Source: an uncultured Fibrobacterota bacterium (GTDB lineage Bacteria > Fibrobacterota > Chitinivibrionia > Chitinivibrionales > WJKA01). Taken from it: a DNA stretch of 64,000 nt. This document shows, one piece after another, positions 6,280-61,745 of the stretch. Made by a program: the position numbers and the translations under genes. The stretch's first letter is position 1; each line of letters opens with the position of its first letter. The stretch is taken from NCBI GenBank assembly GCA_964589825.1, contig CAZPUS010000005.1:46018-110017 (forward strand), written 5' to 3'. A model generated the notes under the pieces. The model was not told where the DNA came from. It saw only the letters and a program-made list of their open reading frames with translations, and did no database searches.

Positions 6280-6371
6280 AATATACTCCTTTCAACATGA
6301 GTAAATAGCTATGCCTTTACCGGGCTATTGCATGTGCTGAACCCACTGTAGTTCGTATCATTTCGGTGGTT

Positions 6372-6403
6372 ACAAAAACCATAAGCCAACCGGAGCGATC
6401 GGC
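6372..6403 (-). terminator. possible terminator / palindromic hairpin after the LarA-like gene
   Basis: Minus strand: GCCGATCG-ctc-CGGTTGGC (8 bp, including two G.T pairs), then TTATGGTTTTTG. The T-run is 6 nt from the stem, so this is weak. A member of the CAACC/GGTTG hairpin set. Confidence 0.35.
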
Positions 6404-6474
6404 TTTTCATAATCGAGAACAACACAATATTACGGTCCACAGCGGAATCCATACTCATAATCTCCCGCATCAGG

Positions 6475-7752
6475 CTATATAAATTTATTCGCATCTGTCC
6501 AGAGTCCGAGGCCGGGGTTCGATATAAAGTATATCTCTTCTCCGTCCGGCATAGTATTGTAGCCCTGGGTAAGTGTTTCAGGATTGTACTTTTCCATCAT
6601 GGTATCGACCGGCTGCCAGGCATAATTGACCGACTCGATTTCTTTCCGGCTGATGTGACGGGTACAGTAGGTTATCGAGAAGCGGTCTTCGCTCGATCCA
6701 TGGATAAGATGTGCGGCTGCGCTCAGATTGTTTTGCAGTTCAGGATTATCTTTTACCGCTTTCTGTACAAAAGGGGTACCGCGATAGCCGTATTTGCGGA
6801 TGAGACGGTCGATCTCTTCATCTTCACCGAATTGGGTGAGTCCGGGGGCGAGGATAATTAGTTCTCCCTTATCCGCAAGTGCCATTCGGGTACGATAGAT
6901 GCTTTTATTACCAAGCCAGGTACTCTTGTATTCGGACGGGTCGAGGTAGACAACCGCTTTCTGAAGCGGCTGTGTGAGTTTTTCGATATTTACTTCTGCG
7001 CTCAGGGTTGCTGCCCGCTCAAAGCATTCGATGTCTGTGCCGATATAGAGCCCACGGGTGGTAAGTGTGTTTTCCTCGTCAGGAGAGAGTACGGTGTGTA
7101 CATAAACGATGGGCAAATGCGACGCATAACGGTTTTCCGCATAATTGAGCACGCGTCGTACCGGGTTGTCGGCACGACCCATTATGCGTTCCATACCATA
7201 GGCTGCACCAAGGTAGTGGCTTTTGTTGATTCCCTCGCTGCCCCCGGTACCAACAAAGATGTTTTTGTTATAATTGGCCATGCCGATTACTTCATGCGGC
7301 ACTACCTGTCCTATGGAAAGGATGAGATCATAGTCGTTGTCCACAAGCATGGAATCGATCTGAGCCGGCCATGAAAAGTCGACGCATCCGTGGGAGGCCT
7401 GCCGTACGAAGTCGGCTGGCACCTCACCGAGAGTGGTAACGCCGTGGCGCCAGTCGTGGTAGCGGATTCGCTGACGCGGCAGATTACCGAACATATGTGC
7501 AATTTCCTCCTCACCCATCTCCTTATGCGTTCCGAGTGCGGGAAGGATGTCAGTAAGACGGTCACCGTAATAGTCATGGGCGAAACGCGTGAGTTCTCCT
7601 GCGCGTGAGTGCGCTCTGGTGGAGTCGGGCGGGACCACACACACCCGGTTGCGTTCTCCCAGTGCATCGAGTGCCTGGTACAATCCGCTGCGAAGATCCT
7701 CGGCAGTCAGTACGGCATGTGTCGATCCTGTCTCAAATAGTAATGTGCTCAT
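6475..7752 (-). CDS. LarA-like (lactate racemase N-terminal domain / DUF2088) family protein
   Basis: 425 aa. Central block ILSIGQVVPHEVIGMANYNKNIFVGTGG resembles the LarA-family ..PH..G..GG.K motif region. The specific function cannot be read from sequence. Confidence 0.65.
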   Translation of the reverse strand: MSTLLFETGSTHAVLTAEDLRSGLYQALDALGERNRVCVVPPDSTRAHSRAGELTRFAHDYYGDRLTDILPALGTHKEMGEEEIAHMFGNLPRQRIRYHDWRHGVTTLGEVPADFVRQASHGCVDFSWPAQIDSMLVDNDYDLILSIGQVVPHEVIGMANYNKNIFVGTGGSEGINKSHYLGAAYGMERIMGRADNPVRRVLNYAENRYASHLPIVYVHTVLSPDEENTLTTRGLYIGTDIECFERAATLSAEVNIEKLTQPLQKAVVYLDPSEYKSTWLGNKSIYRTRMALADKGELIILAPGLTQFGEDEEIDRLIRKYGYRGTPFVQKAVKDNPELQNNLSAAAHLIHGSSEDRFSITYCTRHISRKEIESVNYAWQPVDTMMEKYNPETLTQGYNTMPDGEEIYFISNPGLGLWTDANKFI

Positions 7753-14357: not shown

Positions 14358-14452
14358 AGGGTATTTTCGATACTGAAGATAAGAAAGTATTCAAAGATAC
14401 TATTTGCCGGTTTTTAAAAGCAAGTCATAGGTGAATGCCGTGATGCGGCCGG

Positions 14453-22444: not shown

Positions 22445-22592
22445 CGGCCCATTCTTTCCATATGACCCGGGGCATCGGAGGAAAGGAGCACGTTTTTTAC
22501 ATTATTTTTTTTTGCCGAAAATACGGGTAATGACATTGCCGGCGAATTGAAAAGAAACAGGATGCCATTGATATTGATTCGTATGGCTGTTA

Positions 22593-22620
22593 CCTAAATT
22601 GATCGGCTTTGTTCGCGAAA
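22593..22620 (+). repeat. short copy of the intergenic motif (M5)
   Basis: CCTAAATTGATCGGCTTTGTTCGCGAAA matches 21 of 28 positions of the copy at 39573-39600 (read on the minus strand). It is followed by hairpin CGCGA-(17 nt)-TCGCG and then TTTGC. Lies ~150 nt downstream of a plus-strand gene. Confidence 0.55.
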
Positions 22621-22741
22621 TTTGGAGCCATCCCCTCGCGTTTGCATCCGCAAAAAAAGAACCTGTGAACAACGTCGACCCATTATTTCCGGGAATGCAA
22701 TCATCGTAGGGCTTACCGCATTGTTCATATAAACTTTGCGG

Positions 22742-23698
22742 TCAGCTTGAGTGAGTAGTATCTGCCAGCGAATCCCTGAATTCATAAAACGTGGTATTAT
22801 CGGTATACAGGGCGAATACCCGTTCGAACTCGTCTGTATCCTCAAAGCCTACCTTTGCAGCGATCTCGGCAGCCATGGTTTTGGGATGGATGTAAAGGTG
22901 ATGTTTTGCCCGATTAATTCTGACATGGTTGATGAACTCTTCTATAGACATACCGAGTTCTTTTTGGAAAAGACTCTGTAGAAACGCTTCGCCGGTGACG
23001 AGGTCCTGGCAAACGATTTTTGGCGTAAGATGAGGCAGGTAATAAAGTTTTTCGATATATTTACAGGCTTTCTGTACTTCCTTGTCCATTATCGAAAGGC
23101 GCATTCGGGTAAGAAATCGCTGCTTATCCCTCGTGTCATGAAAGAACGCGATGGTTGCCCAAATAAGCCCTGCACAAATGAGCAGGATGGCAATATGAAT
23201 GATATGCGTTCTAAGCCATGAAAATACCGTGTGCAGATGGAGGAATCGTCCCACGCGTACAATAAAGCTGAGGTTTTTGGTGGTATCTCGCTGGGTGTCC
23301 GCTGCATAGAATGTGTCGGTAAAGGTCGCTGCATGTGCAGAATCCTCACGGGCCGCAGAATCTGCGGTTGTTTTTGTGAGCGATTCTTTTGTCATATGCG
23401 AATCGGATACTGCGGCAGTGGAATCGTCGATAGCACTATCCCGGATAGTAGTATCAAACGTATCCTTATCCGTCGGGACAGTCGGTTCGGTCAGACTGTC
23501 GAGTAGATTATCGACCGAGTTCTGTATGAGCGAATCGGAAATCGTGACCGTTGTATCCGACTTGACAACGGAGGAATCAACCGTCGAATCTGACTGCGGC
23601 GGTTCCGCCCATGCGGATGAACCCACAAACAGAAAAAACGATATCAAAAATGGGAAAAAACCCCGCGCTGCAGCGTTAAGTAGTGAAACTGGTCGCAT
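22742..23698 (-). CDS. membrane-anchored AraC-family transcriptional regulator
   Basis: C-terminal AraC HTH (..EEFINHVRINRAKHHLY..AAEIAAKVGFEDTDEFERVF). A transmembrane segment (IIHIAILLICAGLIWATIAFF) precedes it. The start is set at MRPVSLLNAAARGFFPFLISFFLFVGSSAWA (signal-like); the track's Met at 23839 adds 47 non-hydrophobic residues. Confidence 0.7.
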   Translation of the reverse strand: MRPVSLLNAAARGFFPFLISFFLFVGSSAWAEPPQSDSTVDSSVVKSDTTVTISDSLIQNSVDNLLDSLTEPTVPTDKDTFDTTIRDSAIDDSTAAVSDSHMTKESLTKTTADSAAREDSAHAATFTDTFYAADTQRDTTKNLSFIVRVGRFLHLHTVFSWLRTHIIHIAILLICAGLIWATIAFFHDTRDKQRFLTRMRLSIMDKEVQKACKYIEKLYYLPHLTPKIVCQDLVTGEAFLQSLFQKELGMSIEEFINHVRINRAKHHLYIHPKTMAAEIAAKVGFEDTDEFERVFALYTDNTTFYEFRDSLADTTHSS

Positions 23699-24037
23699 AA
23701 TTCCAAATATACTACCTGCGCGGGACTCTATCATAAAGCGCGCGTACGATGGTATTTTATTCGAATCGGTAAGAGAGCCATTCAATTGAAATTCACACCG
23801 CGTGATATGGTATGCGACATCGGTTGCATCCTTCACCACTGCGGTGTTTTCGAAAATCGGGAGCTGCAGAGGTGAGCGCAGCCGGAATTTATCAAAAACA
23901 CAACCGCATAACGGTCCGGTGAAGAGTCTATCGAAATAATCGATCGATTCAGGTGCAAAGAGAACAACGAGGGTTGTATTTTATCGAGTGTAGTGATAAT
24001 GAACCGTAAATACGTAACAACAACAAGGAGAAGTAAT

Positions 24038-24667
24038 ATGCAAAGGATAGGGTTGTATATGGTTATGGCAGTAGTGTGCTGCGGTATGTTTTCGGCCCTC
24101 GAGGCCTACAGCAGGTATACGCATGTGCAGATTGGTCCACAGTGGCCCGAAGACCTGAAGGGTGTTGCATGGAACGCGGGTCTGGAGTCGGGTGCGGAAT
24201 TCGATCAGATAATAACCGTGGGTGGCGGGCTCAATTTTTTATGGAAGACCGAGGTGAGTGACAGTGAGGATGTTTCCACCACGCCGGTTACGAAAATCGA
24301 TACCTCGAAAACCGGGCGCTATATGGTTCCTGTCTACGCGACACTCGGTATCGATCCGCAGCCGCAGCTGATCGTGCACCCGGTGCTCAAGATAGATGTC
24401 GGTCTCAACACCATGTACTACAGCCACAGGGAATACGACAGGGATAAGGAAAAGCTTGTTAAAGCCGATACCTCGAGCGGGTTTTATTTTGGTCCTTTTG
24501 TACGGGTGGGTCTCGAAGGGGTATACGATCTCGGAGAGACGGTGTCGGCACGTGCGGGATGTAGCTGGAGCTGGTCGAAGGTAAAGAAAAACGCGGAAAA
24601 TGCCGGGCATTACGAACGGCCCATGAGTGGATTCGGGATGTGTGTGGGGCTGCGTTTCCGTATGTGA
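24038..24667 (+). CDS. outer-membrane beta-barrel protein (small porin/OmpW-like size), function unknown
   Basis: Start set at MQRIGLYMVMAVVCCGMFSALEAYS (signal peptide), preceded by AAGGAG. Alternating amphipathic strands run to the C-terminal ..GMCVGLRFRM. No family assigned. Confidence 0.6.
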   Translation: MQRIGLYMVMAVVCCGMFSALEAYSRYTHVQIGPQWPEDLKGVAWNAGLESGAEFDQIITVGGGLNFLWKTEVSDSEDVSTTPVTKIDTSKTGRYMVPVYATLGIDPQPQLIVHPVLKIDVGLNTMYYSHREYDRDKEKLVKADTSSGFYFGPFVRVGLEGVYDLGETVSARAGCSWSWSKVKKNAENAGHYERPMSGFGMCVGLRFRM

Positions 24668-24741
24668 GCAGGCTGGGCGTGACAAAAATTATGCCCGAAG
24701 CAATAGAGCAAAAATGCAGTAGCGGAGGGCGTGGAAGGCGG

Positions 24742-24948
24742 TTACCATGCTTCGAAAAGGCGCGAATCGACCCCGTCTTCCCCGATGGGAAAACGAACGC
24801 GTTTGCCGCATTTGGGGCACATACCGGCATACGCGCTGCCGTCTCTGGTTTTATATATGTATCTGTACACATTGCAGCACTTGAAATGGACCCCGAGTGC
24901 TTTACTGGGGCGTTTGTCGGCCGGTTTTCCGGAGGTGAAATCGTGCAT
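24742..24948 (-). CDS. possible small zinc-ribbon protein
   Basis: 68 aa with a CC..(19 aa)..CPKC arrangement (HFKCCNVYRYIYKTRDGSAYAGMCPKCGKRV). Co-directional with, and downstream of, nadD. No recognisable RBS. Confidence 0.4.
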   Translation of the reverse strand: MHDFTSGKPADKRPSKALGVHFKCCNVYRYIYKTRDGSAYAGMCPKCGKRVRFPIGEDGVDSRLFEAW

Positions 24949-25202
24949 GGAACCGATTACGTATCAAGTATGGGTTTTTGGAATCGATCATTACATACTG
25001 CTTCGGCGAATACGGACCGGTACATGGAACCGGCGTTTATCCCTTGCGGTTATTTACTTCCGTAAGCCGTGGTATAAGAGTCCCTGTGTCAAAGCAGTAT
25101 CTATGTTCCCACCGGGGATAATGGGCGCAAATGTGGTAATGCAAAAAAAGCACATGTATGTACGCAGCATTATTTCACATTATATCATATTTATTCCTGC
25201 AG

Positions 25203-25226
25203 TGCAACCGGGGCACCTCGGTTGCA
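25203..25226 (-). repeat. CAACC/GGTTG-core palindromic hairpin just after the nadD stop
   Basis: TGCAACCG-gggcacct-CGGTTGCA, a perfect 8-bp stem. No adjacent T-run. Confidence 0.6.
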
Positions 25227-25233
25227 GCACTGC

Positions 25234-25818
25234 TCAGTACACGTTGTTGTCGACAATGTACTCGATGACGCCTTCCGGCAGCAGGTACGTGCAGGGAATG
25301 CCGCTGGAGAAGTATTTTCTGAGTAAAGAAGAGCTGAGTGCCCACTGCGGAGAGGGCAGGGCGGTAATCGGGACATCAGCAATTGCCGCAGGCGGGGTCA
25401 TACCGTAGCCGGGGCGCTTGGTGACACACAACGATACCATAGTGATAATATCGCGAAAACGGTGCCAGGTCGGGATCTCTCTGAGGTTATCGGAGCCGAT
25501 GATGTAGTGTATCTTCGCATGAGGATGTCGGTTTCGGAAACGATACAACGTATCGATTGTATACGAAGGTCCTTCCCGGTCAAGTTCGTCGGTAAGAATC
25601 CGTGCCTTGGGGAATTCGTGGATCGCTTTTTTGAGCATTGTGTGGCGCTGGTGTGCAGATGCGGTAATCGAATGCTTTTTATGGGGAGGGACGCGTGCCG
25701 GTATAAAATACAGTTGTGAGAGCTGCAGATAGTCGCACGCCATTTTTGCGGTGCTGAGATGCCCGTAATGAATGGGGTCGAAACTGCCGCCGAAAAGACC
25801 TACGTTGTAACTGTCCAT
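25234..25818 (-). CDS. nadD: nicotinate-nucleotide adenylyltransferase
   Basis: 194 aa. N-terminal GLFGGSFDPIHYGHL (the nucleotidyltransferase (H/T)xGH motif) and NadD-typical length. Confidence 0.92.
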   Translation of the reverse strand: MDSYNVGLFGGSFDPIHYGHLSTAKMACDYLQLSQLYFIPARVPPHKKHSITASAHQRHTMLKKAIHEFPKARILTDELDREGPSYTIDTLYRFRNRHPHAKIHYIIGSDNLREIPTWHRFRDIITMVSLCVTKRPGYGMTPPAAIADVPITALPSPQWALSSSLLRKYFSSGIPCTYLLPEGVIEYIVDNNVY

Positions 25819-27671: not shown

Positions 27672-27764
27672 TTTCCGTAAAAGAAAAAATGAATGTTATC
27701 GTAACCTGAATTGATAATTTTAGTTGCGGCATCTGTTGCAATCCGCACTATTCTAAATAGTCTC

Positions 27765-27870
27765 TAAAATCATGAGGCAACCAACAAGGTTGCCCCATAA
27801 TTGTTGAGAACACAGTAGCAGCACGGCTCATCGCAGCTTTTATCGAAACAACCGCTCAATTCAAACATAA
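27765..27870 (-). repeat. full-length copy 1 of the intergenic element (motif + spacer + ATTATGGGG + hairpin + CTCATGATTT)
   Basis: Colinear with 45722-45822 (opposite orientation). By hand count, 60 of 75 positions are identical between GAT and TGA. Contains hairpin GGCAACC-ttgtt-GGTTGCC (27776-27794). Confidence 0.85.
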
Positions 27871-28127: not shown

Positions 28128-30689
28128 ATGATATTATATCGATACGTCCTTAAAAAACATTTCCCCCCGTTTATCTATTCTATCGCGATTATTCTCTTTA
28201 TTTCGATTGTCAATTATGCGGTACGAATACTGGATAAAATAATCAGCAAGGGGCTCGAACCGGGCGTGGTGCTCGAGATTTTTCTGGTCAATCTCGGATG
28301 GATGGTTGCACTGGCAGTACCTATGGCCACGCTTACCGCCACACTTATGGCGTTTGGCAGTATGTCTGCGGACAACGAGATGGCGGCGATACGGGCTTCG
28401 GGGATTCCTCTTTACAAGCTGTTGATTGCTCCGCTTTCCGCTTCGAGTGTGCTGTGTGTGTTGCTGATTTTTTTTAACAATCTTATTCTGCCCGACGCGA
28501 ACCACAGAACCGCAAGCCTGATGTCCGATATTTCACGAAAGCACCCGGCTGCATTTATCGAGCCCAAGGTACTTATCGATGAGTTCAGCGATTATGGACT
28601 GTATGTCGAGCGGGTAAAAAGCAAAACCGGGCGGCTCTACGGGATCAAGGTTTTCTCTCAGCAAAAGGGAGGACGGTATACCACAACAGTCGCCGATTCG
28701 GGAGAAATCATTCAGACACATAACGGCAGGTTCCTCAGGCTCACCCTCTTTCACGGCGCATCGCATCAGCTCGGCGGTAAAGAGCCCGGGGAGTATATCG
28801 TCAGTTCGTTCAACGAGCAGATCCTGGTGATAAAAAACAAGGATACAAAACTGCAGCGGCGCGACCGCAGTCATCGAAGCGACAGGGAAAAAAGCTCCGA
28901 AGCAATGCTGAGGGATGTAAAACGCTACACCGAAAAAAAACGGCATACGGTAAGCCAGTACAATGCATTTCTCGATTCTCTTCAGCGCAGCGTGACGCGA
29001 TGGGATTCGCTTTACCGTGTTACGCCTTTTAGTCCGGATACGGCTATCCACCGCTCCGATTCTACATTTATGCAGTGGCGTGCCGGTATCGTCACCGCGC
29101 AGCAGATGGAAACGCGGCTGACACACATGCAAAAAAAGGTGCAACGGTATGCCCGTACCATTACCAGGTATGAGAAAAACAGTGCCAAATATATGGTCGA
29201 GGTGCATAAGAAGTTTTCAATACCGTTTGCCTGTATCGTATTTGTGCTGATAGGATCTCCCCTGGGGATAATGGCGCGAAGGGGCGGTATCGCGGTAGGA
29301 GCGAGCTACAGCATACTTTTTTTTATTATCTACTGGGCTCTGTTGATACAGGGGGAGAAACTGGCGGACGAGCTGGTTATTTCCCCGTTTCTTGCAATGT
29401 GGAGTGGTAACATCCTGATCGGCGCGTGTGCATTGGTTCTTGTGTCACGACTGGGCCGACGCCGCATGAGTATTTCCTTTGCTCCGCTCCTGGAGACGCT
29501 TCGTTCATGGGCTGCGCGTCTGCATCGGAATCCGGTTATTCGCGCCATGATATTTATTGCATCGCTTCCCGTAAAGGGATGCTTTTTATTTTTGCTGTTG
29601 TTTCGCAGAATTTCCGGCATCCTTCCGCTTTACATCATACGATTATTTCTTGGGTATGTTATCGGGATAACCGTGGCGATTATAGTCGTATTTGTCACCG
29701 TCGATTACGTATCGAATTCGGGGTTGTTCAGCGAGGCGGGTACCGGGGATATCGCCAGGTACTATCTCTACTACATGCCGTGGATTCTTCCCATGATATT
29801 TCCGGTTATCAATCTTCTCGCGTCGATGGCCGTAGTGGGTAAACTTGTCGGAAGACGTGAGATCGATGCAATGCGCGCATCGGGAATCAGCGTCGTTCGT
29901 GCGTTCAGTCCGTTGCTGCTTGTGGGGCTGCTTTTCACTGGAGGAACGTTTCTTACCCGTGAAGCACTTCTTCCCCAGGCAAACATGAAACGGGAGGTGC
30001 TCAAATCCAGGCTCAAGGGGCACGGCGAACGGATGGCGGGGCGTCATAACCGGAGGGATTTTTATTATTTTGCTAATGACAGTACGGTTTACTTCTTTGA
30101 AAGACTCCGTGGATCCCGCAACAGCGGCCGCAAGGTGTGGGGGCAGTATTTTACCAAATCGAACCGCATGCGAAAATTCGTGCAGGCGGAAAAAGCGTCC
30201 TGGCGGGACAGCAGCTGGTATCTTTATAATGGTGTAGTGCGCTATGTAAGGCCTCAATCCGATTCTTTCGCGCAGTTCGATACTTTGAAAGATGTTGCAC
30301 TCGATGTATCCGCACGAAAAATGGCGACTACCATATCGTCACCGCTTGAGCGCAGCTACTGGGAGCTGCATGAGTATATCCAGCGTGCAAAACGACGAGG
30401 AGAAGAGATTCAGGAGTATCTTGCGGAGCTGCACTTCAAAATGGCATTCCCGTTCATGAATTTTATCGTGATATTACTTGGCGTTTCGATTGCGGCACGT
30501 ATCGGGAGAAGGGGCGGAGCCGTGCTGTTCGGCATCGGCATTTTCGTGAGTTTTTTTTACTGGATGGGTGCACGATTTGTGCTCGAATTCGGCAAAAACG
30601 GCTACATCTCACCGATTCTCGGCGCGTGGATAGGTAATGTAATATTTTTTGTAATTGGGATATGGCTTTATGCAACAACCGACAGATAA
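28128..30689 (+). CDS. fused LptF-LptG-type (YjgP/YjgQ) lipopolysaccharide export permease
   Basis: 853 aa. The N-terminal half starts with the family-typical MILYRYVLKKHFPPFIYSIAIILFI... A second permease module starts near LPLYIIRLFLGYVIGITVAIIVVF... Each half has the 3+3 TM arrangement around a large periplasmic insert. Confidence 0.85.
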   Translation: MILYRYVLKKHFPPFIYSIAIILFISIVNYAVRILDKIISKGLEPGVVLEIFLVNLGWMVALAVPMATLTATLMAFGSMSADNEMAAIRASGIPLYKLLIAPLSASSVLCVLLIFFNNLILPDANHRTASLMSDISRKHPAAFIEPKVLIDEFSDYGLYVERVKSKTGRLYGIKVFSQQKGGRYTTTVADSGEIIQTHNGRFLRLTLFHGASHQLGGKEPGEYIVSSFNEQILVIKNKDTKLQRRDRSHRSDREKSSEAMLRDVKRYTEKKRHTVSQYNAFLDSLQRSVTRWDSLYRVTPFSPDTAIHRSDSTFMQWRAGIVTAQQMETRLTHMQKKVQRYARTITRYEKNSAKYMVEVHKKFSIPFACIVFVLIGSPLGIMARRGGIAVGASYSILFFIIYWALLIQGEKLADELVISPFLAMWSGNILIGACALVLVSRLGRRRMSISFAPLLETLRSWAARLHRNPVIRAMIFIASLPVKGCFLFLLLFRRISGILPLYIIRLFLGYVIGITVAIIVVFVTVDYVSNSGLFSEAGTGDIARYYLYYMPWILPMIFPVINLLASMAVVGKLVGRREIDAMRASGISVVRAFSPLLLVGLLFTGGTFLTREALLPQANMKREVLKSRLKGHGERMAGRHNRRDFYYFANDSTVYFFERLRGSRNSGRKVWGQYFTKSNRMRKFVQAEKASWRDSSWYLYNGVVRYVRPQSDSFAQFDTLKDVALDVSARKMATTISSPLERSYWELHEYIQRAKRRGEEIQEYLAELHFKMAFPFMNFIVILLGVSIAARIGRRGGAVLFGIGIFVSFFYWMGARFVLEFGKNGYISPILGAWIGNVIFFVIGIWLYATTDR

Positions 30690-34774: not shown

Positions 34775-34898
34775 GGTAATACCGATCAGTTTTTTTTGTC
34801 CCCATATTCTGAATCTGAACCCCGGGCTTTTGTGTGTTTCAAATATGCTGTCGTTCTTACAGCCGTTGTGTCCCCGAGAACAATCGAGCGGTTTACGC

Positions 34899-36803
34899 TC
34901 AAGAAGATATCTTAGCTGAGACAAAGGTACGGGCAACAAAGCCGGCCCATACAAGCCCTTTCAGGATTGCAAGACACAGGGCAAAATATGCGGTTCCCAG
35001 AAGTGGGATGAACACCACGCTCGTAAGCGACATGCCGAAAATGCCGCCAAAGAGATCCGCTGCATAACAGTGATGGGTGTTTGAACCTTCAAGGGAGACG
35101 AATTGGGCCGCGCTGAGTATTCCAATGCCTGTATGAAGAATAAAAAAGAGCCATACCGGAGGAAAAGAGAGGCTGAGAAGAAAAAGAAGGGCAGCGGCGC
35201 TGTACAGGGCAATAAAGATATCGCCATGCGTACGCATTCGTAATCGACTTCCGATAACAAAGCCCAGGGTAAGTGCCAGCATCAGAAGCGAGATGTACGA
35301 GTAGAGATTGCCGTAATACGACTGGTACAGCAGCATGAGCGCGACCGAAAATGCGCCGGTGGTAAACCCGCTGGTCGAAATAGAAAGCGAGGTGCGGTTT
35401 TTAGGCAGCAGCAGGAATGCGGCCGCGACAAAAAACGCGCCAAGTAATGCAAGAAAGAATGCGGATAGCGGGAAGTGCTCCAGCCATCGTTGCGCAGAGA
35501 GGGTAAGGGCAATCGGTTTTTGTACCGTATTGATGGCAGAGGTGTCGGAAATGGCATTTACCTCTCTTATCCGTTGCGGTGTAACCGCGGAAAGGATATA
35601 ATGTTCGAGGTATCTGGTCGGTACCGATATGGAAATACTCTCTTTCAGCGCAAAAGTCGATGCGGTAAATGTATAGCCGTTTCCGGGATAGACGAAAAGA
35701 TCGGAAAACATGGTGTCAAGGGTTGTATAGACCGTGGTAAAAAGCTGTCGGGAGCTGGCGCTCATATAATTCGTATTGAACGACAGGGTGACACTTAAAA
35801 GTGAGGAGTCGGACATCATCTTTTTGCATCGGGTATAGAACGAGCGGGTAAAATAGCGATTCGACCCGGCATTGTAGGGGATATCCGTTGCCAGCAGGAT
35901 ACAGTCGTACTTTTTTTCGCAGCAGTAGCGGGAGACTGTACCGGTCACCATACCCGAATCGGCCAGCAGCGGTTCGGACTCGATGCAATCGATCTCGAGC
36001 CCGGGATACTTTGTAAGCTCACGGCGATGGTGTCGATCGTGCACCAGCAGCACCCGTTTGGCATGTGGCAGAAATGAGAGTGGAATATGTACCGACTGCT
36101 CGATCGAGGGGAGTACGATATTCGATCGATAGAGGTGATTGTTTACCAGCAGGGAGGTATCGGTACCGGAAATAATGAATGCAATTTCACCCTGATGTCC
36201 GTACCGTACGACGTCGGGTTCTGACTGATATTTCCAGTTCCGGCTTTGGGGATCGATAAAAAGAAACAGCGCACACGCAACAAGGCTGATACCCAGGAAA
36301 AGCCTGCGTGTGCTAATTGTAAAAATATAGGGAAGCAGACACACGACAAGCAGCAATGCATTGGGAATAAAGGAAAGAACTCCACCAAAGACGATCAGGG
36401 ATCCAGCCATATTTCCTGCATTTTCTATCCCGTATACCCCACGCCGCGGCGTGGACAGGGAGATCGTGCCAAAAAGATACCCGGAGAAAAACGCAAAAGG
36501 GCTCTGGGTAAGTACGATAAACGCGGTAATCGTAAGAGGGGAAAGCATCTCGCCCGGACCGCTCAAAAGCCGTACCCCGCGTATACTTATACAGCCGTAG
36601 AGTGCTGATACCACAAGCAGTAGTACAATGAATTCGATGCTTTTTTTGTGGTGCGCACGTGCACTGCGACTGCCAATGCCACTGCATAAAAGCCATAACC
36701 CGAGTATGAGCCCGATAACGAGCTCATTTCCGTGGAAAATGCCGAGGAACTCTCTGATAAATATGCATTGAATACCGGCGGCGCCGATGCCGCCGGCGAG
36801 CAT
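34899..36803 (-). CDS. polytopic membrane protein with a central spermidine-synthase-like (degenerate) domain
   Basis: Has the architecture of 'fused MFS/spermidine synthase' proteins: ~8 N-terminal TMs, a soluble middle region, and C-terminal TMs. The usual GGGDG SAM-binding loop reads LLVHDRHHRR here. The start is placed at Met 36803, 10 nt after the upstream stop; the track's Met at 36881 would overlap by 68 nt. Confidence 0.6.
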   Translation of the reverse strand: MLAGGIGAAGIQCIFIREFLGIFHGNELVIGLILGLWLLCSGIGSRSARAHHKKSIEFIVLLLVVSALYGCISIRGVRLLSGPGEMLSPLTITAFIVLTQSPFAFFSGYLFGTISLSTPRRGVYGIENAGNMAGSLIVFGGVLSFIPNALLLVVCLLPYIFTISTRRLFLGISLVACALFLFIDPQSRNWKYQSEPDVVRYGHQGEIAFIISGTDTSLLVNNHLYRSNIVLPSIEQSVHIPLSFLPHAKRVLLVHDRHHRRELTKYPGLEIDCIESEPLLADSGMVTGTVSRYCCEKKYDCILLATDIPYNAGSNRYFTRSFYTRCKKMMSDSSLLSVTLSFNTNYMSASSRQLFTTVYTTLDTMFSDLFVYPGNGYTFTASTFALKESISISVPTRYLEHYILSAVTPQRIREVNAISDTSAINTVQKPIALTLSAQRWLEHFPLSAFFLALLGAFFVAAAFLLLPKNRTSLSISTSGFTTGAFSVALMLLYQSYYGNLYSYISLLMLALTLGFVIGSRLRMRTHGDIFIALYSAAALLFLLSLSFPPVWLFFILHTGIGILSAAQFVSLEGSNTHHCYAADLFGGIFGMSLTSVVFIPLLGTAYFALCLAILKGLVWAGFVARTFVSAKISS

Positions 36804-36813
36804 ATACCGCAGT

Positions 36814-38331
36814 CTATTTCCCCGACTCGCTGAAATGGATGACGCGGTAGCGTTGGATGTCTGCGGTTTTCCACGCGTCACGGGGCAGGCCTGCCTTGTG
36901 AGAGAGATTGCGGAGGAATTCTTTTTTATCGTTGAGTTGTTCCCATACCTGAGGAAGGTAGGTCGATCGATGCATTCCGCGGGAAAGGATGATGCCGTCT
37001 TTGCCTTTGACTATTTTGTCAAGCAGGTCTTTCGCATCGCGGTACTCTATCGGTTCGGGTTTCGTGAGCACTGAAATCTCGATGGAAATACCATCCAGCT
37101 CCGCTTTGGTTACAGGAGAAAACCGGTGGTCATTAAAGGCGGCGTGCTGCGCGTTCTCTTTTATTGCCTGGAAGATCGGCTTGACCGGTTGTATATTTCC
37201 GATACATCCTCTCAAAGCACCCTGTGAAGTAAGTGTCACAAAGCACCCCCGCGCTTTTTTGAGCTCCTGCGGTGCATCGTCGCATGAAGGAGGTGATTCG
37301 TCTCTGAGCGATGCGGCGATACTTTGACGCGCGAGTCGCAGCATATACTGCTTTGCGCTGTCTGAAAACGACATCGGTTCATCGGGTGTGTGTGCCGAGC
37401 CGTTTACCTCCTCGGAAGAAAAATTATCAGAATGGGCAACGGCCGAAGCGGTGTTCGCACCCCGTTGTTCAGGACAGTAGATGATGCTGGTATAGCCTAC
37501 GACCCTGTCTTTGGGGGCGTATTCGGGTGCCGCATCGTGAGAGTTTAATGCCGCACGCATTATGGGCTGAAGATTGAGTTGCCCGGCAAGATGGATAAGC
37601 ACTTTTATTCCGGTTTCGCCACACGCCTCTATCGAGGCATCGGTATTACCGGAAAGGATCGCTTCGATGCTCTGCGAGTCTATTCGATTTGCCTCTTCAT
37701 AACTGTGAAAATGAGACAGGTCGGATGAGGCCACGACAACGGTACGCTCGTCGATATACGGTTTAATGAGCCGGGCGACCTTTTCGGCCGGTGCATCACG
37801 CATGAGCATAGGAATAAAAGTGAACTCGTCGAGGCGCATTTGCAGAAACGGAAGCTGTACCTCGATACTGTGCTCCTGCGCATGTGCGTTCGGTGAGGAA
37901 GAGACGAGCGGATCGTTGCGCAGTTGCGAAATAACATCTTTGTCGAGTGAGACGTTACCCAGTGGCGTATGATACGCATCGACGTCAGGGATGGAAATGC
38001 CGTCAACCGGATAGTGATGTGCAGGCCCGAGAATGAATACACGCCTGATTCCCGGCTCGAGAGCGGCATATCCGAGTGCCGCGAGCTCTCCGGAGAAAGG
38101 ATAACCGGCATGCGGACTCAAAAGCAGTGTGGGACTGCATGGCGCCTCTTTCGCCTTTTCAAATGCGGAAGAGATAAACTCACGGACCTCTTTTGGATTC
38201 GAGGAATAAAATTGACCCGCTACTGCGGGTTTACGGATATCTTCTGCTTCGGTTCCATTGCAATGAAACAAACCCATAACACATACTCCTGCTATAATCC
38301 TTGAAATATACAACCGCAGGCGCGCAGCCAT
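36814..38331 (-). CDS. AmmeMemoRadiSam system fusion protein: MEMO1-family (protein B) + AMMECR1 (protein A)
   Basis: 505 aa. The Memo-like N-half has AGQFY, SPHAGYPFSG and ILGPAHH. The AMMECR1 C-half has GALRGCIGNI and STYLPQVWEQ. The N-terminus looks like a signal/lipoprotein peptide (IIAGVCVMGLFHC). Confidence 0.85.
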   Translation of the reverse strand: MAARLRLYISRIIAGVCVMGLFHCNGTEAEDIRKPAVAGQFYSSNPKEVREFISSAFEKAKEAPCSPTLLLSPHAGYPFSGELAALGYAALEPGIRRVFILGPAHHYPVDGISIPDVDAYHTPLGNVSLDKDVISQLRNDPLVSSSPNAHAQEHSIEVQLPFLQMRLDEFTFIPMLMRDAPAEKVARLIKPYIDERTVVVASSDLSHFHSYEEANRIDSQSIEAILSGNTDASIEACGETGIKVLIHLAGQLNLQPIMRAALNSHDAAPEYAPKDRVVGYTSIIYCPEQRGANTASAVAHSDNFSSEEVNGSAHTPDEPMSFSDSAKQYMLRLARQSIAASLRDESPPSCDDAPQELKKARGCFVTLTSQGALRGCIGNIQPVKPIFQAIKENAQHAAFNDHRFSPVTKAELDGISIEISVLTKPEPIEYRDAKDLLDKIVKGKDGIILSRGMHRSTYLPQVWEQLNDKKEFLRNLSHKAGLPRDAWKTADIQRYRVIHFSESGK

Positions 38332-38335
38332 TGTA

Positions 38336-39487
38336 TTAGCCTTTCGATTCCCAGAGTCCTTCTATTGTATGTCCGCAGAATGAACATCTGCCGTCTTTGA
38401 TTTTTGTGTGTTCTATGCGATAACCGCGTCGTGCAATAACAATGCGACCGCAGCCGGGACAGCGTGTATTGCTGTCGGCTCCCGGGACATTTCCGAGATA
38501 GACATAGTGCAGGCCCTTTTGCTGTGCCTGTTGTCTGGCTTTGTGCAGTACATCCGCAGGTGTGGGAGCAAGATTGCGAAGCTTGTAGGAAGGGTAAAAT
38601 CGTGAAAAATGAAGAGGGGTGTGCGCCCCGATACTGGTATGCAGCCATTCGCACATGCGCGAGATGGTTGAAAGATCATCGGTCCATCCCGGAATTACGA
38701 GGTTGGTAATTTCGACCCAGATTCCCATCTCAGCGGCGTGCGCTATCGTTTCAAGTATGGGATCCCGTTTTCCGGCATTGAGCTTTTGGTAGACCGCAGG
38801 GTCGAAGCTTTTAAGGTCGATATTAGCCGCATCGATAAAGGGGGAGAGTTGTTCGAGCGGTTTTCGGTTTATAAAACCGCAGGTAACGAGGATGTTTCGA
38901 AGGCCTTTTTGATGAGCGAGTCGTGCGGTATCGTACATGTATTCATACCATACGGTCGGCTCCGAATAGGTGTAGGCGATCGCATCGCATCGTTGACGCA
39001 GCGCGTGCTCAACCGCCTGCTGCGGGCTGAGATTCGTGTTGCGGGTTTGACGCGGACTTTTCTGGCTTATGGACCAGTTCTGACAATTTTTACAGCGGAA
39101 ATTGCATCCTGCAATGGCCAGCGAATAGACACGGCTGCCCGGCAGCACGTGATAAAGCGGTTTTTTTTCTACAGGGTCCACATGGATGGCACACGGGTTG
39201 GCATAGCCATAGGTAGAGAGTACCCCGTCTTTATTGGTTCGTACCCTGCAGGTGCTTATTTGGCCGGGTGCGAGTATGCAGCCGTGAGGGCATAATCCGC
39301 ACTGTACGGTGTTACCCTCTCGTGCAATTTCGAACATAGCTTTATGAAGCGGGGGCTCTGCGCAAAAGCCTGAAACGGGCAGCGCACTTATACCCGCGGA
39401 TGCACAAAGTGAGCACAGCAGCTCCCTGCGTGTAATCGAGTCGGTTATCATGCCAGAAAAATAATAGGTTCCTTGCCGAAAACGCAT
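38336..39487 (-). CDS. AmmeMemoRadiSam system radical SAM enzyme
   Basis: 383 aa. Radical SAM cluster motif AGCNFRCKNC, a PFL-activase-like fold, and 4 nt to the downstream Memo/AMMECR1 gene. The N-terminus carries a Tat-like SITRRELL + hydrophobic segment. Confidence 0.85.
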   Translation of the reverse strand: MRFRQGTYYFSGMITDSITRRELLCSLCASAGISALPVSGFCAEPPLHKAMFEIAREGNTVQCGLCPHGCILAPGQISTCRVRTNKDGVLSTYGYANPCAIHVDPVEKKPLYHVLPGSRVYSLAIAGCNFRCKNCQNWSISQKSPRQTRNTNLSPQQAVEHALRQRCDAIAYTYSEPTVWYEYMYDTARLAHQKGLRNILVTCGFINRKPLEQLSPFIDAANIDLKSFDPAVYQKLNAGKRDPILETIAHAAEMGIWVEITNLVIPGWTDDLSTISRMCEWLHTSIGAHTPLHFSRFYPSYKLRNLAPTPADVLHKARQQAQQKGLHYVYLGNVPGADSNTRCPGCGRIVIARRGYRIEHTKIKDGRCSFCGHTIEGLWESKG

Positions 39488-39530
39488 GAATCTGTAATAG
39501 GTATAGTATTATGTACCAAAATGTGTTGTC

Positions 39531-39578
39531 AGCAAAATGAAGCTACAGATGACTTTTTTCATATAGCAGCTTTCATCA
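39531..39578 (-). terminator. probable terminator of the 39760-40980 gene, built partly from the repeat motif
   Basis: Minus strand: ATGAAAGCTGC-(19 nt)-GTAGCTTCAT (10 pairs, one bulged A, one G.T) followed by TTTTG. The 5' arm is the 3' end of motif copy M2. Confidence 0.5.
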
Positions 39579-39600
39579 AAACAACCGCTCAATTTAGGCC
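39566..39600 (-). repeat. short copy of the intergenic motif (M2)
   Basis: The minus strand reads GGCCTAAATTGAGCGGTTGTTTTGATGAAAGCTGC, near-identical to the 5' ends of the copies at 27835-27868 and 45937-45969. Confidence 0.8.
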
Positions 39601-45721: not shown

Positions 45722-45822
45722 GCACCTAAACCGAAAATAGTTTTGATGAAAGCTGCGGTGAGTGGTGCTGCTATTGTGAATTCGAAAATTATGGGGCGAT
45801 CATGTTGGTCGGCTCATGATTT
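45722..45822 (+). repeat. full-length copy 2 of the intergenic element
   Basis: See 27765-27870. The 5' motif core is divergent and 1 nt shorter here (CCTAAACCGAAAATAGTTTTGATGAAAGCTGC). Hairpin CGATCA-tgt-TGGTCG lies at 45797-45811. Confidence 0.85.
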
Positions 45823-45936
45823 CCGGGGACGCAGGCGCAGTGGGGATTGCAGCAGATTACGCGAAAAAAGCGCTCAGTTTAGGTAGCAGTTCTGTGGTGT
45901 TTTTATCCCTGCAACGAAGTAAGCGCGATGCGATAT

Positions 45937-45969
45937 GCAGCGTTTATCAAGACAACCGCTCAATTCAGG
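45937..45969 (-). repeat. short copy of the intergenic motif (M3)
   Basis: The minus strand reads CCTGAATTGAGCGGTTGTCTTGATAAACGCTGC (29 of 33 identical to M2 by hand count). A more degenerate copy lies at 45861-45887 (CTAAACTGAGCGCTTTTTTCGC). Confidence 0.8.
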
Positions 45970-48032: not shown

Positions 48033-48267
48033 ACAACACTCCTTATATTATAAAAAAAACGTGTCTTTTATCCAATATAAAATTATCACAATACAATAGC
48101 AAGTATTATTTTAATTTCGCGTAAACCCGAACCGAGCGATTTTGTGTGCGAAATCCGTCGCCATTCGCACTGCAAGTGCATTCCCGCAAATAATGAGGTC
48201 GCCGTAAGTGTTGCTCCATCATCTTCGGGAACGCAATAAACGTACGACTCGTCGCATCTTTCGCCCA

Positions 48268-48306
48268 CACAATCGCGCCGCGTTTTTCCGGCGGAAGTGT
48301 TTTTTT
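48268..48306 (+). terminator. intrinsic terminator inside the purB 5' leader (candidate attenuator)
   Basis: CACAATCGCGCCG-cgtttttc-CGGCGGAAGTG (about 10 pairs with an internal loop and a bulge) followed immediately by TTTTTTT. It ends 47 nt upstream of the purB ATG. Confidence 0.6.
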
Positions 48307-51445: not shown

Positions 51446-51894
51446 CGCCAGACCTCCCTCTCGTATAAAGTGGTTCGTGAAAACGAATCTTTTACATGAT
51501 TAAATAACGTGAATGCGAAAGTGACAAAAAATACATTGTTTGCGCATCATACGCGTAATAAAGGCAGAGGCTGCCGCAAATCTCTCTCATTCGATTTCGG
51601 TTGGCACAAAAGCGCACATTCATGCGAGTTTAAAATAAAATCAGTAAGAAATTGGCAAAAAACCGAACAAAAAATTATATTTACCGCATACTGGTGATTT
51701 TCTACGTATTTACGGATAGATTTTTTCTTTCGTACAATCCCCATCAAATACAATATTATATACAGTGGTTTTTTATGAAAGTACAGAATATTGCTGCGCA
51801 CAAAAAATACCACATTATTTAACGGTTTAAATTGTAAAAAAAAACAAACCAATCGCAAATCGAAAAAATCTGTTTTATACCACAAGGAGTGATT

Positions 51895-53172
51895 ATGTAC
51901 ACATTTCGTACGCTGGGAAGAGTGGTGACGGGAATCGGAGTAGGGATGGCATTGCTGCTGGGTGCCTGTGAATATCCATTGGATCCGGGGCCGGATCCGG
52001 AAAAAGCAGAGCAGGAGATACAAAGCGGTATTTACAATAAGTACTGGGGCATAAACGGCGGCATTCAGATATGCAATCCTTCGGCGGGACTTGAAGGCAG
52101 GTTTTCCCATTGTATGGCCTGGCTCAACCTGGGTGATATTGATGTGGACAAGCCGGGGTTCGAGGCCGGGTACGAACATGACCGGGTGATCGTATCGAAT
52201 AAAGATAACGGCGTCGAGTGGTTTCTTCTTGCGGATGTCTTTAAAAAATCGCTTTCCGATCCGCCGGTTAATCTGAACAACCCCCAGATTCAGGATCCGG
52301 AATGGGGGATGCACCCGCTGAAGTCCGGTACCGGCTGGCGCGCAGACTCCGCGACCGGCTACCTCGCGATTCTGGTACAGGACGTTGGCGACAAATGGGA
52401 CGGCTATATTGTCCGTATGGCGGACAAAAAGATTCTGCGCTTTGCCAACAACCAGTTCGTGGGCAACGAAACCCCGCATGTCTGGATGAAGACACCTCCT
52501 CAGGTCGCCTATGATGAGGATGCGACCGCGCAGATTGACGAGACGAATTCGGTGTCTGATGAGTACGGGGCGACCGGCTGGCTCGAGGATACCGCAAAAG
52601 TGCGCGCATTTTTCGGCACAAAGGATGTAAAGATCGTATGGTCGAAACAGGAGAAAATGCACTTTATCGATTATTCCGCACAAGCCACGGTAACTTCATG
52701 CAATGAAACATCTCCCCTGGAAGGGTATTACTTCGACAGCCCGCTTATTTCACCCGACGGGGAATGGATCGCCTACAACCTTACAGACGGAAAAGACTGC
52801 AGAGCGTATGTACGGCCCCTGGCAGCGGATGGAAGGGCGATTCTTGCCGACCGTCCCGATTCGGTTACCGCGGACCCTCACTGGTATTACGACACCCTCA
52901 ACAGTACCTATAGTCTTGTCTATATATTCGGGGCAGAGAAAAAAGGACCCTACGATATTCACTGGAAAGTGAAGGATTTTTATAAAAACGGCAGCACGGT
53001 AGCCAAAGGAATCGGTCCCGCAATACCCGCACAGGGTAACTTGCTGCAGTCGGAGTTTTTTGCCACCGGTGCAACGTCAACGTTGATCGGACTTCCCTTT
53101 GCAGGTGGAGTGAACCTCGACGAGCTTGTGTGTACCGGGTATCGTTTTGCCTATATCGCCGAAGCGCTGTAA
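51895..53172 (+). CDS. lipoprotein of unknown function (possible beta-propeller/PD40-like segment)
   Basis: ATG at 51895 with AAGGAG 5 nt upstream. Lipobox LLLGAC. Segment SPLISPDGEWIAYNLTDG resembles a PD40/TolB-type blade. No family assigned. Confidence 0.7.
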   Translation: MYTFRTLGRVVTGIGVGMALLLGACEYPLDPGPDPEKAEQEIQSGIYNKYWGINGGIQICNPSAGLEGRFSHCMAWLNLGDIDVDKPGFEAGYEHDRVIVSNKDNGVEWFLLADVFKKSLSDPPVNLNNPQIQDPEWGMHPLKSGTGWRADSATGYLAILVQDVGDKWDGYIVRMADKKILRFANNQFVGNETPHVWMKTPPQVAYDEDATAQIDETNSVSDEYGATGWLEDTAKVRAFFGTKDVKIVWSKQEKMHFIDYSAQATVTSCNETSPLEGYYFDSPLISPDGEWIAYNLTDGKDCRAYVRPLAADGRAILADRPDSVTADPHWYYDTLNSTYSLVYIFGAEKKGPYDIHWKVKDFYKNGSTVAKGIGPAIPAQGNLLQSEFFATGATSTLIGLPFAGGVNLDELVCTGYRFAYIAEAL

Positions 53173-53249
53173 CAGGCCTGTGAAAATCAAGGAATCTGAA
53201 TATAAAAAACATCGAATACTTTACACAGTTATTTAAAGGAAAAGTGGTT

Positions 53250-54500: not shown

Positions 54501-54546
54501 GTTGATCCTTACATTTGTATACATAAACCGGAAAAAGGAGAATAAA

Positions 54547-54960
54547 ATGAAACGTAGTATTTTAGCGGTATGCACAATGGCGGCCGGGTTGGCGCTGGCG
54601 GGTATGTGGGGTTGTGACGGCGGCAACGGCCCTGAATGCGAGCGTCCGAATGAATTGACGGTCGACACTCCCACTGAAAACGATACAGTGGCACTTGGAG
54701 AAAATATTACCGTAACCTGGCGCTATCCCGAGGACTGGACATTCGAGCAGCTTCGTATTTTCCTCTCACCCAACAGCGGACTGACCTTCCCGTTTCAGGA
54801 TAGTGCCGATTTTAATGGTAACTGCCGCCAGAGCTATGAGCTGACCATTCCGGACGATGCCTCATACGTGACCGAATTTCCCGCGATTGTAAAAATTACC
54901 GATTATGATCAAACTGTGTCAGCGAAATCGGAACAGTTTACTATTGTTGAATCAAAATAA
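54547..54960 (+). CDS. small lipoprotein of unknown function (Ig-like)
   Basis: Start at MKRSILAVCTMAAGLALAGMWGC (lipobox), preceded by AAAGGAG. 137 aa and beta-rich. Confidence 0.65.
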   Translation: MKRSILAVCTMAAGLALAGMWGCDGGNGPECERPNELTVDTPTENDTVALGENITVTWRYPEDWTFEQLRIFLSPNSGLTFPFQDSADFNGNCRQSYELTIPDDASYVTEFPAIVKITDYDQTVSAKSEQFTIVESK

Positions 54961-56078: not shown

Positions 56079-56079
56079 C

Positions 56080-56811: not shown

Positions 56812-56841
56812 AATGATCATACCCACAGACAGGACCGACCG

Positions 56842-57774: not shown

Positions 57775-57813
57775 TTTTATAAACTATACATATTCTATTC
57801 AAGGAGGGAACTC

Positions 57814-58359: not shown

Positions 58360-58411
58360 ACGTGCACTGATAACTCACTACACGATTCTGTTACGACAAG
58401 GATAACGACAT

Positions 58412-59836: not shown

Positions 59837-59851
59837 AAAGGAAAAGAAGTT

Positions 59852-61675: not shown

Positions 61676-61745
61676 AACGGTCTGCAGACCGGTTCTGATA
61701 GTCTAAATCAGCCTGTTTTTCACTCTAAACACGGAAAGAGCACCT

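Follow-up and report, generated by a model that had tools for sequence, protein, structure and literature searches.

A dispersed palindromic intergenic repeat family, probably MITE/REPIN-like, whose hairpin is kept by compensatory change

The locus and the extent of the repeat

Two intergenic spaces of a 64-kb stretch of one genome (contig CAZPUS010000005.1; the whole stretch is called the window below) hold related sequences, one in the divergent spacer between a ybgF-like gene and lptFG, the other between a sugar-binding-protein gene and a TIGR01212-like radical S-adenosylmethionine (SAM) gene. A sequence-only reading had proposed these two stretches (27868->27770, minus strand, and 45730->45819, plus strand) as candidate siblings in a small RNA (sRNA) gene family with members of ~100 nucleotides (nt). 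The strings it quoted are letter-perfect, both lie in intergenic DNA, and from GAT to TGA they align without gaps at 60 of 75 identical positions. The likeness extends well beyond this core, since the full alignment covers 120 columns at 74% identity (blastn E = 9e-18, within the window), and homology runs over ~147 nt, including ~65 nt past the TGA, through the conserved block AGTGSGGATTGCARCAGAT to the tail ...TCARTTYAGGT. This block occurs twice against 0.05 expected occurrences, so the resemblance is not due to chance. The two stretches represent only the middle portion of a larger unit, and in place of two sibling genes the window carries a palindromic repeat of ~160 nt, dispersed and bounded by terminal inverted repeats, which occupies 7 of the 17 intergenic spaces of at least 150 nt in the window.

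The members were collected with an nhmmer profile built from the first two copies (c1 and c2) only, then with an iterated profile, and then with a covariance model (CM; R1) searched without filters. The two-copy profile finds c3 (48276->48124, E = 7e-17), c4 (22735->22587, 2e-12), c5 (23952->23812, 1e-5) and two fragments, the iterated profile adds c6 (6475->6362, 4e-6) together with a marginal match at 34814-34890, and the covariance model scores c1 to c4 at 143-159 bits and also recovers the mini copy A. In total, at least six full-length members, together with one mini copy of 84 nt and one fragment of 33 nt, make up the family in the window. The prediction of additional copies is thereby borne out, at least six more copies or fragments being present in the same window. 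The members are as follows.

27704..27866, minus strand: c1, full length, 163 nt (nhmmer 143-171 bits, CM 156 bits); holds the stretch 27770-27868 of the sequence-only reading; divergent ybgF-like/lptFG spacer, 3' end 41 nt upstream of the ybgF-like start codon
45724..45884, plus strand: c2, full length, 161 nt (CM 159 bits), the sole plus-strand copy; lies antisense to both genes of its spacer, those of the sugar-binding protein and of the TIGR01212-like radical SAM enzyme
48125..48292, minus strand: c3, full length, 168 nt (nhmmer 7e-17 with the c1+c2 profile, CM 148 bits); divergent spacer between a tetratricopeptide repeat (TPR) gene and an adenylosuccinate-lyase gene
22592..22752, minus strand: c4, full length, 161 nt (nhmmer 2e-12 with the c1+c2 profile, CM 143 bits); convergent spacer
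23778..23954, minus strand: c5, diverged, with an internal insertion (nhmmer 1e-5 with the c1+c2 profile, CM 15.7 bits)
6313..6475, minus strand: c6, full length, 163 nt (nhmmer 4e-6), ~50% identical to c1; takes up the 195-nt gap that separates a Lar_N-domain gene from the 6-phosphogluconate dehydrogenase gene, and is oriented in sense
39515..39599, minus strand: A, 84-nt mini copy, internally deleted (blastn 93% over 29 nt; CM 23.3 bits, E = 0.002, model positions 1-164)
45937..45969, minus strand: B, fragment consisting of the 5' module alone, CCTGAATTGAGCGGTTGTCTTGATAAACGCTGC (blastn 90% over 31 nt; nhmmer 1e-3)
34814..34890, plus strand: marginal partial match, possibly a decayed copy (nhmmer 1.3e-3, 13.4 bits); convergent spacer; no CM recovery at E <= 1

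A further covariance-model match at 14321-14418 was discarded as noise (minimum free energy, MFE, -11.7).

Element DNA accounts for 1.1 kb of the 7.3 kb of intergenic DNA, and copies are held by divergent, convergent and co-directional spacers alike. Full-length pairwise identity among the copies is 37-66%. The orientation of each copy is clear in nhmmer, with 129-150 bits on one strand against 8-33 bits on the other; because the unit is palindromic, each copy nevertheless matches its own opposite strand weakly, both with nhmmer and with the covariance model. Seven of the eight copies and fragments lie on the minus strand, compared with a gene distribution of 23 (plus) to 25 (minus), which at n = 8 is not significant. 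GC skew is positive (0.03-0.12) throughout the window, which corresponds to one replichore, and the orientation bias may be one relative to replication.

The 5' 11 nt of c4 overlap the end of an AraC-type open reading frame (ORF; 22742..23839, minus strand) and supply its last codons and stop, and c5, located upstream of this ORF, extends over the 5' end listed for it, so that this AraC-type (HTH_18) regulator is flanked on both sides by copies of the same orientation. The sense copies c6, c1 and A end 33, 41 and 27 nt before the start codons of the 6-phosphogluconate dehydrogenase, ybgF-like and radical SAM genes, respectively; if they were co-transcribed with the next gene, a long hairpin would stand just 5' of the ribosome-binding region.

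Anatomy of the unit and its hairpin

The unit measures 161-177 nt, or 161-168 nt without the insertion-bearing c5. It is bounded by terminal inverted repeats (5' ACCTRAAYYGA, 3' TCRRTTYAGGT), the inverted ends reading 5' ACCTRAAYYGAGCGG... and ...CCGCTCRRTTYAGGT 3' and the unit termini ACCTRAATTGAGCGG. In c2, which ends in ACCTAAACCGA and TCAGTTTAGGT, the 11-nt arms are 91% complementary. The termini are paired with each other in the MFE folds of c1, c2, c3, c6 and A, and the terminal stem of c1 differs from that of c2 by two double changes, one from G-C to A-T, the other from T-A to C-G; in addition, two U.G pairs of c1 are C-G pairs in c2.

A ~33-nt 5' module, (G/A)AATTGAGCGGTTGTYTYGATRAAMGCTGC, is able to survive alone as a fragment and recurs at 39598->39566 and 45969->45937, that is, in the mini copy A and as fragment B. 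Mini copy A consists of this module, a short loop and a degenerate inverted module, and lies 27 nt upstream of the AmmeMemoRadiSam radical SAM gene. On its own, the 33-nt module folds no better than shuffled sequences (z = -0.6 and -1.0). The centre of the unit, ATTATGGGG-apex-CTCATGATTT, is conserved as much as the ends. It is this centre that the sequence-only reading had described, and its details were confirmed: ATTATGGGG, a hairpin and CTCATGATTT are present in both copies, the hairpins are GGCAACC/GGTTGCC and CGATCA/TGGTCG, and the double change (A-T to G-C) as well as the G.T pair noted there are present. The proposed role of the hairpin and U-run as a 3' end had to be abandoned, in that CTCATGATTT is no terminator but forms, within a long stem, the 3' arm paired with ATTATGGGG; the 7-bp hairpin is the tip of an inverted repeat with 22-nt arms, itself contained in the ~160-nt hairpin.

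On one strand, the whole unit forms a single imperfect hairpin of ~57-61 pairs, of which 9-12 are G.U. The RNA folds of c1, c2, c3 and c6 are listed here.

27704..27866, minus strand: c1, end-to-end hairpin, MFE -56.8 kcal/mol, z -4.8
45724..45884, plus strand: c2, end-to-end hairpin, MFE -58.0 kcal/mol, z -4.0
48125..48292, minus strand: c3, end-to-end hairpin, MFE -65.4 kcal/mol, z -3.3
6313..6475, minus strand: c6, end-to-end hairpin, MFE -57.5 kcal/mol, z -3.75

The mini copy A forms a smaller hairpin of this type, with an MFE of -20.2 (z -1.8), compared with -10.6 on the opposite strand.

Fragment B is inverted with respect to c2 and lies 52 nt from its 3' end. Between the c2 module TTTTGATGAAAGCTGC (45741-45756) and its inverted counterpart in B (45937-45952), 13 of 16 positions match, and as RNA the two would pair at 15 of 16, two wobbles included. 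An alternative 247-nt fold of c2 plus B by way of this module pairing has -82 kcal/mol and a z score of -2.25, which is not strong. The composite could consist of two adjacent element remnants or be the trace of a past inversion. An invertible DNA switch formed by the c2 module and B was considered and rejected, because the arms match at 13 of 16 positions only, the window holds no recombinase, and adjacent remnants explain the arrangement.

Maintenance and strand specificity of the fold

Conservation of the fold through compensatory changes, as had been suggested from the single double change in the first two copies, was assessed on a sequence-only MAFFT alignment of five members, with a 55-pair structure taken by majority of the individual folds. 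In this set, 78.3% of the hairpin cells are standard pairs, compared with 35-44% when the partners are slid by 1-3 columns, and 19 of the 55 pairs show double changes, compared with 4-8 in the slid controls. On the five measures used, the observed values were reached by 1, 4, 1, 25 and 2 of 500 shuffles, the 25 of 500 referring to further pair types, and a test on four sequences gave the same trend.

The strand chosen in the sequence-only reading is the folding strand. Sense and antisense MFE amount to -56.8 and -42.0 kcal/mol for c1, -58.0 and -38.7 for c2, -65.4 and -47.4 for c3, and about -54.5 and -34.1 for c6, which corresponds to a sense advantage of 15-23 kcal/mol in these four copies. 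G.U cells outnumber A.C cells by 31:9, a ratio that is partly biased since the structure was derived from sense-strand folds. With DNA energy parameters, the difference between the strands of c1 shrinks to 4 kcal/mol (-26.7 against -22.5), and the z score of c6 drops to -0.8 from -3.75 as RNA. The constraint is inferred to act at the RNA level, since the fold relies on G.U pairs and most of its significance is lost when DNA energies are used; a constraint on RNA is, however, only weakly favoured over one on single-stranded DNA.

Expression signals and searches beyond the window

The description of the two stretches as a transcribed structured RNA stands in part, with the conserved, strand-specific fold on one side and the immediate surroundings of the copies on the other. 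A sigma-70 consensus scan revealed neither a sigma-70-type promoter nor a canonical terminator at c1 and c2, with the proviso that the promoter type of this phylum may differ. At c3, promoter-like sites occur downstream, between the element and the TPR gene; the only hits there are located outside the element or run antisense to it. The flanks show no relationship from copy to copy and have no upstream sequence in common. A Bacteroidetes-type -7 box (TAnnTTTG) overlapping the c1 ATG was dropped as a candidate, being absent at the other copies.

The Rfam check proposed along with the first observation was run, and the copies match no family: at gathering threshold the whole window yields a tRNA-Glu only, and permissive scans of c1, c2 and c3 reach at best 20 bits against a gathering score of 47, in unrelated hairpin families. 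Likewise, blastn of c1 (word 11) gave no match at E <= 0.01 in 5,426 complete E. coli genomes and nothing in PLSDB plasmids and phage genomes; a degenerate DNA pattern of the 5' module had 0 matches in collections of genomes, metagenomes and viral contigs, and a peptide-pattern scan of metagenomes, derived from the frame-translation alignment, returned nothing.

As judged from its proteins, the window belongs to a Chitinivibrionia-like member of the Fibrobacterota: LptFG is 43% identical to that of a Chitinispirillum metagenome-assembled genome (MAG), and homologues of YbgF carry the name Chitinivibrionales or Chitinispirillaceae. Five related loci (L001-L005), together ~60 kb, with LptFG 32-43% and YbgF 66% identical, contain no element detectable by blastn, tblastn, nhmmer or the covariance model. 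The closest of them, JGI contig L005 (YbgF 66% identical), keeps the divergent lptFG/ybgF arrangement. Two database proteins encoded on other NCBI contigs, P0115 and P0116, contain translated copies of the element (see below); both are inferred to come from the same draft genome as the YbgF of the window, and the family is probably genome-wide.

A probable MITE/REPIN-like family

The most probable interpretation is that the observed pair constitutes the centre of two members of a new, lineage-restricted family of dispersed, non-coding, ~160-nt palindromic intergenic repeats, similar to MITEs (miniature inverted-repeat transposable elements) or to the doublets of REP (repetitive extragenic palindromic) sequences known as REPINs. 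The family is new and the kind is known, namely that of dispersed palindromic intergenic repeats. MITEs are defined as elements of <200 bp with terminal inverted repeats and without a transposase, which form long RNA stem-loops and whose ORFs are often annotated or fused to others (PMC3184786). The size of the new family, its terminal inverted repeats, the missing transposase, the long RNA stem-loop and the fused or annotated ORFs agree with this definition, a target-site duplication being the exception. The resemblance to a MITE terminus that the sequence-only reading had named beforehand as speaking against its own proposal is thus partly found, in the form of MITE-like inverted termini of the unit.

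Among the MITEs, those with full palindromy, that is, Correia/CREE of Neisseria and ERIC/IRU of enterobacteria, are the closest in kind, as they share a length of ~100-170 bp, the non-coding and intergenic nature, multiple copies, terminal inverted repeats and RNA stem-loops. For CREE, a link to RNase III has been described (PMC2649163). Moreover, members of such families overlap gene ends or become annotated as proteins, just as c4 supplies a stop codon and P0115 and P0116 were called as proteins. In contrast to Correia and ERIC, the new family has no sequence similarity to them (as said, blastn against E. coli, plasmids and phages gave nothing), shows no detectable TA or other target-site duplication, and has no identified integration host factor (IHF) site or end-generated promoter. 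Its host belongs to an unrelated phylum, the Chitinivibrionia-like Fibrobacterota, and its copies are far more diverged (37-66% identity), the fold being kept all the same.

Another set of repeats comes close in its RNA features. According to Okstad et al. 2004 and Kristoffersen et al. 2011, the Bacillus cereus group contains the chromosomal repeats bcr1-bcr18 of ~150 nt, some of them MITE-like. Experiments are reported to have shown both a TTTAT duplication and transcription for bcr1, and other bcr repeats reportedly have RNA structures whose conservation involves G.U pairs and compensatory changes, their transcription taking place together with adjacent genes. The new family differs from them in its unrelated phylum, in the lack of any sequence relationship, and in being known here from its sequence alone.

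Under the MITE-like interpretation, the copies would have spread in a transposition-like manner as a non-autonomous element, mobilised by an enzyme from another part of the genome. The hairpin would be kept by a constraint on transcribed RNA, for example if the long stem lay in untranslated regions, 5' or 3', of adjacent mRNAs and affected their processing or stability. A role of the hairpin at the level of RNA can be called likely, not proven.

Several observations weigh against this interpretation. No transposase, Y1/RAYT (REP-associated tyrosine transposase) or recombinase is encoded among the ~45 ORFs of the window. No consistent target-site duplication was found when the boundaries were shifted by +/-3 nt; the best flanking repeats measure 2-4 nt and differ at every copy (GTT/TTA, AGCA, CGC, AC, TAA), and the age of the copies allows for decay. 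The copies are old (37-66% identity), and recent mobility is not indicated. The orthologous spacer of 457 nt in L005 has no trace of the element, yet it is too diverged for an alignment of filled and empty sites. In addition, the fold of c4 has decayed (MFE -44.2, z -1.0) and lacks strand asymmetry, c5 likewise has no strand-specific fold, and the covariation test rests on five related sequences only. Finally, the fold is kept across copies of such age to an extent that exceeds the need of a purely selfish, decaying repeat, which leaves room for a functional RNA.

Alternative explanations

That room could be filled, with a doubtful but not negligible probability, by domesticated hairpins: multi-copy, G.U-rich RNA stems of ~60 bp under purifying selection for their structure, residing in the transcripts of many unrelated genes or forming stand-alone RNAs. 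Those located 27-41 nt before start codons (c1, A and c6) might, for instance, serve as RNase III entry sites or as 5'/3' stabilisers. If this were true, it would amount to a genome-wide post-transcriptional layer made from a repeat.

A family of independently transcribed ~160-nt long-hairpin sRNAs, acting in trans or being processed, for example by RNase III, is the multi-copy form of the original proposal and must be regarded as unlikely. It would account for a fold that is strand-specific, G.U-rich and significant with RNA energies and much weaker with DNA energies, for the compensatory changes that keep it at 37-66% identity, for the well-defined orientation of each copy, and for the location of 7 of 8 copies and fragments on the same strand, the genes being evenly split. 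However, the copies share no upstream sequence, and c1-c3 have no sigma-70-type promoter and no canonical terminator (subject to the said proviso about the phylum), the promoter-like sites at c3 being located downstream of the element. Moreover, the occupation of every spacer type, with c4 placed over a stop codon and c6 filling an intercistronic gap, fits better with insertion; truncated and internally deleted copies occur, and Rfam has no match.

Quite unlikely as well is a REPIN-type origin in the strict sense, in which the hairpin would have been selected as the single-stranded DNA substrate of a RAYT or an IS200/IS605-type Y1 (HUH) transposase encoded once elsewhere, with fragment B and the decayed arm in A as 'singlets' left by decay. 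IS200/IS605-type transposition leaves no target-site duplication, in line with the lack of one here. The hairpin does contain two inverted modules, the mini copy comprises little beyond them, and an isolated module exists. The 7/8 orientation bias within one replichore of uniform GC skew could also reflect strand-specific transposition of single-stranded DNA, but with n = 8 the bias is not significant. REPINs consist of inverted modules that form a hairpin 'in ssDNA or mRNA', compensatory changes in them are 'common', and singlets are their decay products (PMC3116915); two inverted modules with a spacer, compensatory changes, isolated modules, extragenic location and the absence of a target-site duplication are thus shared with the new family (PMC3116915). 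Nevertheless, the new unit is longer, 160 nt as opposed to REP spacings of 71 and 110 bp (PMC3116915). The REP unit is a 20-40-nt imperfect palindrome, one end of which usually carries a tag, GTAG or CGTC (for the tag, PMC3733652). The 33-nt module is in itself no palindrome, as its z scores indicate, and the ends read ACCT/GCCT...AGGT without either tag. The centre is conserved like the ends, unlike the spacers of REPINs, the hairpin is weak with DNA energies (c6 z = -0.8; c1 strand gap 4 kcal/mol), and the window encodes no Y1 transposase.

Small open reading frames within the element

The 5' two thirds of c1 coincide with an ORF.

27770..27868, minus strand: 32-codon Cys-rich ORF, MFELSGCFDKSCDEPCCYCVLNNYGATLLVAS, ATG to TGA

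This ORF raised the possibility of small Cys-rich proteins or precursors of ribosomally synthesized and post-translationally modified peptides (RiPPs), with a conserved leader (E/K)LSGC(F/L)D and a variable C-terminus, matured by adjacent radical SAM enzymes. In favour of it, the ORF is intact in c1 and has 5 Cys, three loci share (K/E)LSGC(F/L)D(K/E)(S/R)C, copies A and B abut radical SAM genes, and an exhaustive phmmer search of 1.84 billion representative proteins returned two meaningful matches, P0115 and P0116, at 70-76%. However, the intact ORF exists only in c1, with no conservation in c2-c6. Read in the corresponding frame, c2 lacks a start codon and has a TAA at 45727, a stop occurs upstream in c4, and both c3 and c4 are without the CC motif and the final stop codon. 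The 15 differences between c1 and c2 are spread 5/5/5 over the codon positions, with 3 changed codons synonymous and 9 non-synonymous. Furthermore, homology extends ~65 nt beyond the stop, and no Shine-Dalgarno-like sequence precedes the ATG.

The two database proteins are themselves read-throughs of other element copies with different starts and stops. P0116 begins at an upstream start, has no stop at the position of that in c1, and runs into another frame of c1 (LQQIPQI against LQQMPQL), and P0115 carries the element at residues 33-63 as an N-terminal extension, followed by a DUF2391 membrane domain. A profile search of proteins returned P0116 alone, and a word-indexed protein search with the 63-residue stop-to-stop frame gave no candidate. 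Three further matches to the 32-residue query (P0113, P0114 and P0117) were rejected as unrelated, Cys-containing, low-complexity proteins with long tandem repeats; they stem from unrelated sources and have nine repeats of ~75 or ~60 residues with SCDAPCTHC or ATCGETCG.

The two neighbouring radical SAM genes are of housekeeping types, AmmeMemoRadiSam and TIGR01212-like, and because most copies lie nowhere near a radical SAM gene, the nearness of A and B to such genes is coincidental. As a family, these proteins are refuted by the comparison of the copies, so that protein coding is essentially excluded, the c1 ORF is accidental, and the variant in which it would encode a leader peptide and an attenuator hairpin would control the ybgF-like gene is rejected as well.

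Relevance for annotation and for the lineage

Recognition of the repeat guards against three mis-annotations, namely two sRNA genes, a mini-protein rich in Cys or a precursor of a RiPP near radical SAM genes, and spurious N-terminal extensions like that of P0115. The genome paper on a cultured relative makes no mention of such repeats (PMC4814513), and the family is apparently the first record of a MITE/REPIN-like repeat in the Chitinivibrionia branch of the Fibrobacterota. The more interesting point concerns the hairpin, which is kept by compensatory change in copies sharing about half of their bases and is of an RNA type, G.U-dependent and strand-specific. If its RNA role were true, the family would provide a compact natural system for how dispersed repeats enter the control of mRNA processing and stability. 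Given the whole genome, covariance model R1 would find all members.

Other features of the window

The gene divergent from the ybgF-like gene encodes LptF and LptG fused in one protein of 853 residues (28128-30689, plus strand) with two LptF_LptG Pfam stretches; the fusion is also present in the Chitinispirillum MAG and the other relatives (L001-L005), with 848-854 residues. In the AmmeMemoRadiSam-type operon (36814-39487, minus strand), Memo and AMMECR1 are fused in a 505-residue protein that follows the 383-residue radical SAM enzyme. The N-terminus of the latter (MRFRQGTYYFSGMITDSITRRELL...) resembles a twin-arginine or signal-type leader, and mini copy A stands immediately upstream of it.

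ORFs without a Pfam match at E <= 1e-5 are located at 51547-54960 (three consecutive), 34899-36881, 39760-40980, 23993-25408 and 55-741, and include one of 660 and one of 406 residues. The listed ORFs 51547..52683 (minus strand) and 51889..53172 (plus strand) overlap. Downstream, a polysaccharide-modification cluster (54963-63776, plus strand) encodes epimerase/dehydratases, a GT2 glycosyltransferase, an MBOAT acyltransferase and two consecutive AlgX-like SGNH proteins, and resembles an alginate-type O-acetylation module.

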